DNA from: Rhizodiscina lignyota
Taxonomy: Eukaryota
DNA: 64,000 nt
NCBI GenBank assembly: GCA_010015805.1
Contig: ML978128.1
Coordinates: 1,302,001 to 1,366,000 of the forward strand
Reading direction: 5' to 3'
This document shows, one piece after another, positions 1-61,821 of this stretch (the stretch's first letter is position 1; every line of letters starts with the position of its first letter). The notes under the pieces are model-generated. The model ran no database searches and was not told the origin of the DNA. It worked only from the letters and a program-made list of their open reading frames with translations. The position numbers were made by a program, and so were the translations under genes.

Positions 1-794
1 AGGTCAGCAATTTCGGACTGTCGGTAGTCGTTCAAGAATTCGTAGTTCTTCGCAACTTTGTCTTGTGTGGGCTTTGGTCCTGTTATAGGCATGAACCGTG
101 GATCCCGTGGGCGAGAGGAAGCTGGTCTATCCGAAGACACGACACTGCGCTTGCGTGAGACTGCCTTATTTGAAGGCATTGCCATGGGTGCATGCTTGGA
201 CCGTTTCGCGAACTGAGACGTTGGAGCGGCGTCTGGCTCTGAATCGGACTCAGAATCCTCGGAGCTTGTCTCTGAATCTTGCCCAAGACGTGATTGACCG
301 ACATTTTTAGAGAATCCTTCCTCTTTCTTGTCCAAGGTCTTGGGGACTCTTTGAGCTGGGACTTCATCATGGCCACGCTTTGTCCCACGCAGCTCCCTCA
401 ACCGCTCTCGCAGGGCCTCCAGCTTTGCTTCTGTGTCCCCTGAAGTGAGATCGCCTCGTTTGCGCTTCCTACTCGCCTCCTCGTCCCTCTCGATTTTGGT
501 TTGTGCCTTTGCCAATGCGCCAAAAGGCACTTTCCTCAATTGTGCTTGGATGTCGTCGCCTTTACTGCCATCCACCCCCGAGTTGTCCGACTCATCAGAG
601 GAATTGTCTTCTCCTCCTGTATCCTCTTGGCCTTCTGCTTCCTCCAACTCTTCATCTGACTCCTCAATGGCATCGGCATCACCAGTGTCGAGGATGGAGG
701 GCGATGAGCCTTCTAGCTCATCAGAGTACGGGTCTGAGGCCGAGTCATCATCTCGTGCGCGCAGATAGCGTGAAAGTGTTTTTAGAAGCGGCAT
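1..794 (-). CDS. RRP36: rRNA biogenesis protein Rrp36 (5' part; runs off the left edge)
   Basis: Manual translation from ATG at 794: acidic N-terminus, then QLRKVPFGALAKAQ and KHAPMAMPSNKAVSRKR...RPRDPRF, typical of Rrp36/DUF947. Absent from the ORF track because there is no stop in the window. Confidence 0.85.
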   Translation of the reverse strand, partial: MPLLKTLSRYLRARDDDSASDPYSDELEGSSPSILDTGDADAIEESDEELEEAEGQEDTGGEDNSSDESDNSGVDGSKGDDIQAQLRKVPFGALAKAQTKIERDEEASRKRKRGDLTSGDTEAKLEALRERLRELRGTKRGHDEVPAQRVPKTLDKKEEGFSKNVGQSRLGQDSETSSEDSESDSEPDAAPTSQFAKRSKHAPMAMPSNKAVSRKRSVVSSDRPASSRPRDPRFMPITGPKPTQDKVAKNYEFLNDYRQSEIAD

Positions 795-58456: not shown

Positions 58457-59253
58457 ATGGCGGATCAGAGCGTTGAGAAGGGCGATCAGGGTGAGTCCGT
58501 TCTTCCTGTCAGCTTTCAACCTCTCCTGTGCTCCTGGGAGTGCGCAATTGCGCCCCGAGCCGGCTGCATTTACCCGTTCCGGTCGAGCTGCGCTGAAGAA
58601 GCTATCAATCATGTCACTGTCTTTGCCAACTTTATGTTCTCGCGTTATACTAGTCATTTCAAAGTGCGGCATCGCTGATTAGACGCTATGCGCCAGTCTC
58701 CGGGCAATTGGGTTCCGACGCTCCGTCAGGTACCGTCCCCGAAGTCAACAAGGGAGGCGAAGTAGCAATTGAGTCGGACAAAGGCAATGCGGAGCCCGAA
58801 AAACCCGCTCTACCCGTCGAGGAGAAGGCGGATGGCAACACAGGTACTGAGGAGAAGAAGGACGAGGAACCTGCGACAGGCGAGACAGGCGACCAGGACG
58901 AGGAGTTGAAGGGGAAAGAAGAGGACACGAAGGCCGGCGCAGAGAAGGACAAGGATGAGGAGGCGAAGGAGGCGAATGGCGAGGAGAAGCAGACTGGTGA
59001 GAAGAGATCTAAAGAAGACCAAGAGAACGGCGAGAAGCAAGCAGAGGCCAATGGCGATGACAAGAAGGAAGCAGAGGCAGAGCCTGCAGCTAAGAAGCAG
59101 AAGAAAGATGAAGGAGAGGCAAATGGTGCCGGAAAGAAGAAGGCTGGCCGACCGAAGAGGAGTGATGGTCCACCAAAGCCAAAGAGGGAGCCTAAGAAGG
59201 CGGCAACGGAGACTGGAGAGCCAAGGAGGAGCTCCAGACACAAGTCTTCCTAA
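58457..59253 (+). CDS. Small acidic/Lys-rich protein with degenerate Hva1/DUF2945-like N-terminus and AT-hook
   Basis: Exon 58457-58490, intron 58491-58696, exon 58697-59253. Reads MADQSVEKGDQVSGQLGSDAPSGTVPEV...; KKKAGRPKR near the C-terminus. Confidence 0.65.
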
Positions 59254-59572
59254 GTCTCTTTATACACAGGAAATTGTCATCACCGGAAGGAGAGATGTCA
59301 ACATAACAGTTGACTAAAGCCACTGCCAACGGGAAACGGTACACGAGCAGGGCTTTGGATGAATGACGACGGGCACCGGGGCTTGGATGGTTGTCTTCTA
59401 TTTCTCTATGCATGGATCTGGGGGCCTTTTCAACGGGAGGAGGGGTTGTTCTGACATTATTATGCGTTCCAGGACTTCCGTTTCTATTCTTCTGCTTGAA
59501 AAGTAACTGCGTAGCAAAAAGTAGTCATTGTTGTAAGATACAGCAGCAACAACGCACAATCTTTTCCTCTGA

Positions 59573-60980
59573 TCAGTCTGAGTTCGATGCTTGTGCGTTG
59601 CCCATCATGCGTCTTAGCATGAGAACCTCGTGCTTCGTAATGAAGATGCTCGCTTTTGGGGAACTGCTGATGTCTGTCGTCCTACGATCGTCGTCGCCGC
59701 AGCAATCATTTGCGACGCCCTCGCCAAAGTCTAAAGCGTCAGTAAGATCGCGGACTTTCTGGCCCTCCCACTCGCCGCAATCATTAGTCCAGAAGACGCG
59801 CTTGATGCCGACTGAATGCATGTACTGTATACATCTGTAGCACGGACGTGAGGCATGCACAGATCTTATATCGTTACTTGACTCTAGTTCAGGTGATATA
59901 CCAGGACGGGTCCGAGGCCATGGATTGACCAGTTCATCATGCAGTGAGCCAGTCGCGACCAGTGTAGCTTGTCGAGCATCGGACAGATTGCTCCGCTCTG
60001 CTTTTCGACAGTTTGCCTTGACCGTTGGGACGGGTGGCATGTTGCCGAGTCTTGCGACATAGAGGTCTGCGCCAACAAGACGAGGATGCTTCGTTCGATC
60101 AACGACATGTTTCGTAGCGTTACTTGCAAGACTAGTTGGAACGAGTAAGGGCGATGATCTAGGATTGGACTGGGTCGACGAAGAGCGTGTTTGCTTTTGG
60201 CCAAGAGAGGAAGTAGAGGGGCGGTCGTCCAGCTTATGATACTGATATTGATCTCGATACTCGTCTCTGCCGTGATGACGCTGCTTGCCTTTCTTTGCCC
60301 TGTGAAACCCGCCACCCCGGTCCTTGTGTTCTCTCCGAACGTCCTGTTTCTTCTCGTTCTCGCTCTCCACCTTCAGGTACTCCGAGGTCTGGTTGAGATG
60401 TAGCGCCTTCAAAATACCACTGTTTATCTTGGACCTTGCTCGAGCGCTGCTTTGCGCCAGCCTGCTGTTCGGCAGCGGCGCTGCAGACCCGCTGGACATA
60501 CGACTGGAGACATTCCCGTCGTAGTCGCGCTTTTCGTTTAGAATGACCCGATAGTTTAAAGCACGGTTTTTGAGACAACATCTCTGTGGAAGCCGACGTG
60601 CTACAGGCTGCGAGGGCAGACTGGATTGCCATCATTTCGGAGTGCATTGAAAGTGGCACGTTTGCAAGGTGGGAACCGCCGCCTGTGTTCATGCCCTCAA
60701 ATGGAACAAATGTCGAAACCGATGAATTGGCGGTATGGGCAGCCTTCATATCAGCCTTGTCCTTACACTTTTTCTTCAGTTTTGCCAGTGCAGGTCCATC
60801 GAGGGAACCAGACGTGAGACGGCCGGATTTGAGAGCACCGCCATTAAAGCCAGGGCGATAATCATTGTAGCCACGGCCTATCACCTTACCACCACGCACA
60901 ATAATGCAGCCATGGCGATAGTGGAGAGGCGAGAGCGATGCCTGCTCAAGGCACAAGTTCAGGTAGTTATCAGTCTTCAT
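59573..60980 (-). CDS. Zn-dependent cytidine/dCMP-deaminase-fold protein encoded in two overlapping frames
   Basis: ORF 60234-60980 has HGCIIVRGGKVIGRGYN and SMHSEMMAI (HxE). The +1-frame ORF 59573-60499 has GADLYVAR and SRPCYRC...GIKRVFWT (PCxxC). Confidence 0.8.
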
Positions 60981-61821
60981 GTTGATTGTCGGAGCGAGTT
61001 CGTAATGAACAGTCTGATTGCTTGATCGTTTGAGTTAATCTGGAATGTAGAGCTGTATATCACAAGCGAAATGGTGAGCTGGTTGGTGTTTTTGGCGCAA
61101 GATACTGAGTGAAGTTAACGGCAGCGTTTGGACATGAATGACTGTTCAAGGGCAGAGGTTGAAGTTGACTTCGACTGTGCACGGGCCACTATGCCTCCCT
61201 GATCCATTCAAAACTTTCATTTGGTCTCGCAGCACATCGCCATCAGCCAGGTTCAGGTATCTGCCTATGCTGCTAATTCTTCAAGAAACTTTTGACTCTT
61301 AACTTTCATTCCCTCCGCTTTGACCATCAACAAAGACGCCGAGAAGTGCTGAAGATTCGGATCTGTACCGCCGGGGCGAGAGAGAATTCTCAGACAAAGA
61401 GACCAATCCTGCCCCTTTCTTTTTTATTTAACCACATTCTCCTAAGAGCATGTCAGACGTCGGCTTCTTTGGTTCTACCTGTCGAATTTATGACAAGTCA
61501 TGAGAGCGCAGCCACCATTGCGGTTTGGTGTCACGATCTTTCCCAAAGCACGGTCTCGGAGGTCCCAGGCCGCTCAAGAAAAGTTTATAACACGCCAGTT
61601 CCCATCAATTGGCCATGGCTCAATAGCACGACCAATTTGGTCTCGTCGATTATCTGTGTTGGTCGCTCCCGGAAACCAACATGGAGCGGAGACTAGCAAT
61701 ACACAGACCGATCCAGAAACCACCCATATCGCTTCAACTGCTTCTGTTCCAATTCGCTCGTGCATCGGACGAAGTCGTCCAATTCGACCAAGGTCTATTC
61801 GCAGTCGACTGGAACCGACAC

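Follow-up and report, generated by a model that had tools for sequence, protein, structure and literature searches.

Gene Organization

The 64,000-nucleotide (nt) stretch of Rhizodiscina lignyota DNA analyzed here (contig ML978128.1, assembly GCA_010015805.1; hereafter the window) carries on its minus strand a gene for a predicted zinc-dependent deaminase whose two zinc motifs lie in different reading frames (Table 1). The upstream open reading frame (ORF; frame 0) encodes the HSE motif, and the downstream ORF, in the +1 frame, encodes the PCYRC motif. Comparison with fungal orthologues indicates that this offset is conserved and that the coding signature passes from one frame to the other inside a short invariant block, and conserved +1 translational recoding at a non-canonical site is in our judgment the probable explanation. 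R. lignyota is a Dothideomycete, and its public model of this gene is a 453-amino acid (aa) protein that is 99% identical to the +1 translation.

Frame 0 encodes helix 1, strands 1-2, helix 2 with HSE, a long helix (KRKARLRR...YVQRVC), and a tail of 58 codons past the frame switch. The +1 ORF encodes the linker, strand 3 (ADLYVAR), helix 3 (PCYRC), strands 4-5, and the C-terminal helices, and it also includes the sequence GIKRVFWT. A +1 shift at TTT GAA would join 190 residues to 278 and give a protein of 468 aa. The first-pass annotation of the window had placed the HSE, PCYRC, and ADLYVAR motifs, the two stop codons, and the 395-nt overlap, and had predicted a 468-aa product; all of these are correct when read on the minus strand.

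Table 1. Features of the deaminase gene in the window
Feature	Position	Strand	Remark
Whole deaminase gene, ATG to the +1-frame stop	59573..60980	-	NA57DRAFT_58060, R. lignyota
Frame-0 ORF, ATG at 60980 to TAA at 60236-60234	60234..60980	-	248 aa
+1-frame ORF, stop-free, stop at 59575-59573	59573..60631	-	352 codons
Overlap with frames 0 and +1 both open	60237..60631	-	395 nt; equivalent overlap in all orthologues examined
HSE (CAC TCC GAA), zinc/catalytic motif	60636..60644	-	Frame 0
Conserved nucleotide block at the frame switch	60408..60440	-	-22 to +10, counted from the first base of the +1 motif
TGG TAT TTT GAA (QWYFE site)	60408..60419	-
+1 motif GILKALHLN (family xxLKxxH[LIV][ND])	60392..60418	-	First stretch with a +1 synonymous-substitution signature
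Candidate shift heptamer TTT GAA G	60407..60413	-	Frame 0; putative shift site
ADLYVAR, strand 3 of the deaminase fold	60050..60070	-	+1 frame
PCYRC zinc motif	59831..59845	-	+1 frame

A Logan contig (27,577 nt, word depth 147.9), assembled independently from the DNA reads of a public run, has 0 differences and 0 gaps relative to positions 59450-61100 of the window. The matching run may itself be the source of the window, so this identity rules out an assembly indel and not a read-level error; read-level error is excluded because the offset is conserved in orthologues. An assembly indel was therefore rejected as the cause of the split, and the private indel or assembly error that the first-pass annotation had named as a refuting outcome was not found. 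Single metagenome contigs are not free of errors. In one of them (L050), which differs from two close relatives (L056 and L061) at 1-3 positions in 286 nt at the junction, a 1-nt indel in the linker closes the +1 frame; it is either an assembly error or a polymorphism.

Deaminase Family and Predicted Fold

The cytidine deaminase (CDA)/deoxycytidylate (dCMP) deaminase superfamily (PF00383) includes CDA, dCMP deaminase, blasticidin-S deaminase, RibD, and TadA/ADAT2, and the gene described here shares with it both the HxE and PCxxC motifs and the order of structural elements. The frame-0 product alone matches PF00383 (dCMP_cyt_deam_1) with an E-value of 1.3e-5 and a score of 25.4 bits, a marginal pass at a cut-off of 25. 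The match covers residues 5-141 of the product and profile positions 6-84 of 102, ending before the part that contains PCxxC. The +1 product alone matched 0 Pfam families at E <= 1. For the full gene models of the family, PF00383 is a precomputed assignment. H113 and E115 (the H[AS]E motif in helix 2) are invariant in 59 sequences, and P364, C365, and C368 (the PCxxC motif in helix 3) are invariant across the family alignment. An alignment of 29 sequences has 26 invariant columns, every one of them in the +1 part.

A structure of the 453-aa public protein was predicted with AlphaFold2 from the 59-sequence alignment. The mean predicted local distance difference test score (pLDDT) was 60.3, with 81-93 in the core blocks, and the predicted template modeling score (pTM) was 0.47; an earlier model from 29 sequences was too poor to use (pLDDT 54). 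Elements in the model follow the order helix 1, strands 1-2, helix 2 (HSE), a long helix, and a disordered linker, then strand 3 (ADLYVAR, residues 290-298), helix 3 (PCYRC, 366-375), and strands 4-5. Structural comparison with VIA-align gave a Z-score of 11.6 to mouse cytidine deaminase (1zab_C) over 121 of 136 residues, with a root-mean-square deviation of 3.1 and a model range of 1..402. Of 401 chains compared, 117 had a Z-score of at least 8, and almost all of the 50 listed entries belong to this deaminase superfamily, to which the fold match has Z-scores of 9-12 over 100-130 residues. Foldseek alone found no match at E <= 0.001, only local non-significant matches to the same deaminase families. 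A sequence-profile search of the PDB found no solved relative; its sole match was a low-complexity one at E 0.064. On the basis of motifs, Pfam, and modeled fold, the gene is predicted to encode a CMP/dCMP-type deaminase, and in the model both halves join into one cytidine-deaminase domain with the frame boundary between helix 2 and strand 3.

The spacing between the two motifs sets this family apart from the rest of the superfamily. In its gene models 183-343 residues separate HxE from PCxxC, and the frame switch sits in this long and weakly conserved linker. The family defined by the N-terminal domain is small, with 282 representatives at E <= 0.001. Among the best 150 of these, every member with two motifs has a gap of that size, and no relative with a short spacing in one frame was found. 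Named members belong to the Dothideomycetes, Sordariomycetes, Leotiomycetes, and Lecanoromycetes, a distribution which indicates that the arrangement is old; annotated orthologues include Parastagonospora nodorum SNOG_08042 and models from Zasmidium, Podospora, and Venturia. Atlas rows from Basidiomycota (216-273 aa) with scores of 0.86-0.88 are leads only.

Conservation of the Frame Offset

A scan of metagenome contigs returned 80 loci, with 137 of 297 pattern matches encoding a relative and 61 of the 80 loci carrying both halves. Three landmarks (HSE, KRKARLRR, and the first linker motif, xxLKxxH[LIV][ND]) were located in all three frames with no condition on frame. This gave 37 distinct junction sequences, the window included; the loci are interrelated, and the counts below are not counts of independent events.

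The distance from HSE to the linker motif leaves a remainder of 1 on division by 3 in 36 of the 37 junctions. Ten spacer lengths occur (190, 205, 220, 223, 226, 229, 235, 241, 247, and 268 nt), and all differ by multiples of 3. The single exception, L033, departs from the rule because of a 61-nt insertion upstream, and its offset is also +1 if measured from KRKARLRR. This insertion is AT-rich, ends in ...TACTTAG, and lies about 104 nt past HSE, between HSE and KRKARLRR; it looks like an ordinary intron specific to that lineage. Three further loci that the landmark pattern missed (L034, L047, and L055) have the same arrangement by eye. The first-pass annotation had held that an offset kept in orthologues would favor programmed recoding and that orthologues with both motifs in one frame would refute it. 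The offset is kept, and the refuting arrangement was not found: PCYRC is present in 0 of 71 N-half proteins, and 0 of 37 junctions are in frame.

The orthologues have frames 0 and +1 open together across the junction, with abundant stops in the third frame. In the window, the third frame has a 162-codon stop-free stretch (59884-60372, minus strand) that overlaps the linker; the orthologues have many stops there, and the stretch is probably due to chance. Between close relatives, 30 of 31 indel entries within the overlap are multiples of 3, and indels continue in multiples of 3 for about 150-200 nt past the frame-0 stop, while indels of 1, 2, and 4 nt cluster at the true downstream intron. This pattern indicates that the overlap region is translated throughout.

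Conserved Block at the Frame Switch

Substitutions inside each of nine groups of relatives were assigned to codon positions 1/2/3 of frame 0. The N-terminal part has 76/54/168, an excess at the third position of frame 0, and positions -15 to -1 relative to the first base of the +1 motif have 3/8/16. Positions 0 to 14 have 10/5/4, and positions 15 to 29 have 18/10/2, most changes now being at third positions of the +1 frame. The coding signature leaves frame 0 and enters +1 over a distance of about 10 nt, inside the invariant block. The first-pass annotation had guessed that the switch lay near QWYFE (TTT GAA), and the signature does change frame there.

Among the orthologues, the core of the block (60428-60408, about -10 to +10) varies little or not at all at any of the three codon positions, which is the synonymous-site conservation around one motif that had been named as a sign of programmed recoding. 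In the 37 junctions, each majority residue is encoded by a single codon in frame 0 (CAA 33/33, GAG 26/26, TTT 36/36, and GAA 35/35) and also in frame +1 (AGT 31/31 and TTG 37/37). In the remainder of these genes the corresponding shares are about 24-25% of synonymous codons for each of GAA, TTT, and CAA, 43 of 585 serine codons for AGT, and 37 of 454 leucine codons for TTG. Just after the block, synonymous variation appears in the +1 frame: histidine is CAT in 32 and CAC in 5, leucine is CTC in 21, CTG in 8, CTT in 1, and TTG in 1, and the Asn/Asp position has AAC in 16 and AAT in 6. Frame-0 codons there have none.

The candidate heptamer contains YTT-GAA in 35 of the 37 junctions and TTT-GTA in the other 2; most loci have UUU-GAA, one lineage has CUU-GAA, and another has UUU-GUA. 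YUU before G is the sole frame-0 codon of the block that would allow a P-site tRNA to re-pair one base downstream.

Frame-0 Tail

Frame 0 continues past the block for 25-119 codons in the orthologues. When synonymous codons of the +1 frame were permuted, the openness of frame 0 had p < 0.05 in 32 of the 37 loci, including 17 with p < 0.01; in the window p was 0.012. The reverse permutation, for openness of the +1 frame, was significant in 0 of 37 loci (median 0.87). These results indicate that frame 0 is kept open by selection, suggesting that unshifted ribosomes make a second, selected product. In 71 proteins, most of them unannotated ORF calls, the N half is followed by a frame-0 tail.

A second invariant block of 8 nt, GAGAAACA, is present within the overlap in the 19 of the 37 loci with the corresponding motif; its readings, E-K-H (frame +1) and E-T (frame 0), fit residues conserved in both frames. 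It lies about 100-250 nt past the switch block in L001, L007, L012, L013, and 15 other loci; the window does not have it. Like the first block, it includes a frame-0 GAA codon. In many lineages (e.g., L013, L029, L035, and L040) the frame-0 tail ends in ...ICV* or ...CA*, which correspond to SxSK and ARK in the +1 reading.

Introns and Gene Models

The offset over the whole distance from the N half to the C domain varies among loci (0, 1, or 2), because many loci carry a further interruption downstream. This interruption is an ordinary intron of 44-58 nt with a GTAAGT-like donor and a YAG acceptor. A candidate is present in 22 of 27 interrupted loci, and candidates with a CTRAY-like branch point in 18 of 27; they join the +1 frame to the C-domain frame without stops. 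No downstream intron is needed in 15 of 42 distinct regions, including the window.

The same intron criteria were applied to the 0/+1 junction. No frame-restoring candidate (GT[AGT]NG[TCA]...YAG) was found in 26 of 36 loci, 0 of 36 loci have a candidate with a branch-point motif, and no canonical intron is shared among the 36 loci. The window has three candidates (40, 55, and 82 nt), all starting from GTATGT at 60501, private to R. lignyota, and deleting the conserved YVQRVC. The 82-nt candidate (60420..60501, minus strand) had been put forward in the first-pass annotation as the best splice alternative. Its bounds (GTATGT at 60501, CAG to 60420), its restoration of the frame, and its lack of a branch point were described correctly. 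As an explanation it fails: it is private to the species and would delete the conserved YVQRVC (family YVxxVC) segment.

Two other intron readings were rejected. The public model reads ...AKQRSSK joined to TSEYLK..., treating 46 nt (GTCCAA...ACCAG, 60389..60434, minus strand) as an intron; this is private to the species and would take out the linker's most conserved block, and orthologues lack its GT. A reading with the linker in frame 0 and a long intron that begins near the frame-0 stop is contradicted by the indels in multiples of 3 that extend past that stop; only the +1 frame is open there, and a short canonical intron joins it to the C domain. The varying N-to-C offsets and the open frame 0 would fit this long-intron reading.

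Public gene models of the family are inconsistent. Among 64 annotated models with two motifs, the frame-0 motif at the junction is retained in 15, the +1 motif in 18, neither in 31, and both in 0. The ad hoc introns differ from model to model, such as one of about 34 nt in a Lentithecium model and a GC-AG intron of about 40 nt in SNOG_08042, both deduced from similar metagenome loci and not from the species' own DNA. All 64 models examined are probably wrong at the junction.

Interpretation

Under the proposed programmed +1 frameshift, one mRNA would give two products. A fraction of ribosomes would shift +1 within the conserved block of about 20 nt (60428-60408) and complete the full enzyme of about 468 aa. 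The likeliest place is the frame-0 codon pair TTT GAA (60413-60408), where the peptidyl-tRNA on UUU (CUU in one lineage) would re-pair on UUG with a little-used GAA codon pending in the A site. Unshifted ribosomes would read the remaining frame-0 codons, 58 in R. lignyota, and release the 248-aa protein with only the HSE half. We infer from the comparative pattern that the ribosome is the agent of the frame change, that it acts at this codon pair, and that both products are made and used. The recoding proposed in the first-pass annotation is supported by the comparative test, in which the offset and the synonymous-site conservation agree; its suggestion that recoding serves to limit a mutagenic deaminase is speculation.

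The main rival to translational recoding is a correction at the RNA level, in which a non-canonical or very short intron, or some other unrecognized excision or edit of 3n+1 nt, would mend the frame and leave translation ordinary. It would fit with the annotators' having placed an intron at the junction in 64 of 64 models, and the window does offer its three private GTATGT...YAG options and the 46-nt GTCCAA...CAG stretch. Most orthologues offer no such option, however, and none is shared. In the shortest spacers only about 31 nt remain between the conserved YVxxVC and FKS residues, and because of this an intron would delete conserved coding sequence. Introns are also free of the constraint that makes spacer lengths step by 3 and overlap indels fall in multiples of 3, as the true downstream intron illustrates, and coding-type substitution patterns reach the switch from both sides. 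Excision of the Ire1/HAC1 type was considered as a special case. CNGCNGN is the loop motif of Ire1-type excision; inspection by eye found no conserved paired loops at the junction, and the one pair seen, in one lineage, would remove 14 nt and give the wrong frame. We consider RNA-level correction unlikely. Transcriptional slippage was rejected as a candidate: the T run never exceeds 4 nt and in several lineages is 2-3 nt long.

Two further alternatives concern what the ribosome does with the message. The full-length enzyme might never be made, with only the frame-0 protein produced and the +1 part translated separately or left as a relic; the selection that holds frame 0 open and the 71 ORF calls equal to such a product agree with this. 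The C half is nevertheless strongly conserved, holding all 26 invariant columns, and in the model the fold and the zinc site would be incomplete without its strand 3 and PCxxC helix. Separate initiation is constrained as well: in L007 the >200 codons that precede the first in-frame stop of the +1 frame include no Met, and because of this an AUG start for the +1 part is unavailable there. A conserved +1 offset would moreover be needless for two independent products, and we regard this alternative as very unlikely. Equally, ribosomes might shift at the frame-0 stop codon, as on the shifty stop of antizyme, and not at the conserved block. This would account for frame 0 being open to a roughly homologous place, with tails in ...ICV* or ...CA*. 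A shift there is highly improbable because the stop and its context are not conserved: the 36 loci have TAA in 20, TGA in 8, and TAG in 8, with 13 forms of the last sense codon, and both stop type and preceding codon vary between clades. In L032, frame 0 stops only 23 nt past the start of the motif, and a shift at the stop would leave the clear +1 coding signature just after the block without explanation.

Several observations weigh against translational recoding at this site. The block has none of the known eukaryotic +1 heptamers named in PMC12719033 (CUU-AGG-C, CUU-AGU-U, GCG-AGU-U, and GCG-UGA-C). Its frame-0 A site has no stop or known rare codon, and re-pairing from UUU to UUG leaves a G:G wobble mismatch. 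Downstream of the site no stable or conserved RNA structure was found (z-scores of -1.5 to +1.6 for +8 to +98 in 15 loci), and an alifold consensus of -30 to +32 was empty; stimulatory structures are not present at all +1 sites. The total invariance of the block is explicable by double coding alone and is no proof of a shift signal, and substitution phases through the body of the overlap are flat (200/184/187), favoring neither frame. The relatedness of the orthologues means that the counts overstate independence, the AlphaFold2 model has moderate confidence by its pTM, and an RNA-level change such as unconventional excision or editing was set aside solely for want of a recognizable signal.

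Translational recoding, if it operates here, may also represent something more specific, which we put forward tentatively and as somewhat less likely than not to hold in full. The site would be a new type of cellular +1 site, YUU-GAA in an invariant block of about 20 nt with no stop or classical hungry codon, that predates the split of the four fungal classes and divides a single catalytic domain. It would be coupled to a selected double-coding overlap of 25-119 codons and would yield both a complete deaminase and an HSE-only protein with a conserved tail of its own. The ratio of the two would be set by GAA decoding, for instance through the availability or the wobble modification of tRNA-Glu(UUC).

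Conserved chromosomal +1 frameshifts are few in eukaryotes, and each is informative on how ribosomes keep or lose the frame. The deaminase, if the recoding reading is true, would be a widespread fungal example with an unfamiliar shift site, no obvious stimulator, and a long overlap with both frames apparently under selection. Such genes will escape notice in annotation pipelines that force introns. Were the enzyme to act on nucleic acids, control through the efficiency of frameshifting would represent a novel means of setting the dose of a deaminase.

Neighboring Open Frame

A convergent neighbor on the plus strand (58654-59253) is an open frame of 199 codons that is rich in E and K and has a GRPKR stretch close to the end. 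Its product resembles a low-complexity protein and is possibly associated with chromatin.

Comparison with Known Systems

Full-text searches of the literature found no account of a frameshift in a fungal deaminase. In the first 300,000 of the 449,034 characters of a 2016 recoding review, the sole passage found on a deaminase is an incidental -1 shift in Bacillus cdd. The likeliest route to the complete enzyme would be a programmed ribosomal frameshift that has not been described before.

Antizyme (OAZ) is a conserved cellular +1 frameshift, from a short ORF1 to the main ORF2, and is present in fungi (PMC1874602). Antizyme shifts at the ORF1 stop and senses polyamines, whereas the deaminase block has no stop, the context of its frame-0 stop is unconserved, and no downstream structure was found. 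PaYIP3 has a frameshift that is conserved across Pezizomycotina and gives a short and a long product per mRNA, with colinear cDNAs (PMC3777964). Its extension is a separate C-terminal region, whereas the deaminase shift splits a single catalytic domain, and the two gene families are unrelated.

Antizyme and four yeast genes (ABP140, EST3, OAZ1, and YFS1/YPL034W) are conserved +1 cases named in PMC12719033, which also describes a slow or stop codon in the A site of the yeast heptamers. The deaminase block has none of those heptamers, its best candidate being YUU-GAA, and, as a further difference, its frame-0 ORF ends far from the site, being held open for 25-119 codons. The host groups also differ, Pezizomycotina for the deaminase and Saccharomycetales for the yeast genes. 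In other respects the yeast +1 genes and the Ty1/Ty3 elements are similar to the deaminase: two overlapping ORFs in frames 0 and +1 encode one protein, the offset is conserved, and a switch of frame in the synonymous pattern takes place at a short, highly conserved site. An argument from the same frame-changing substitution pattern is made for YFS1 (PMC12719033).

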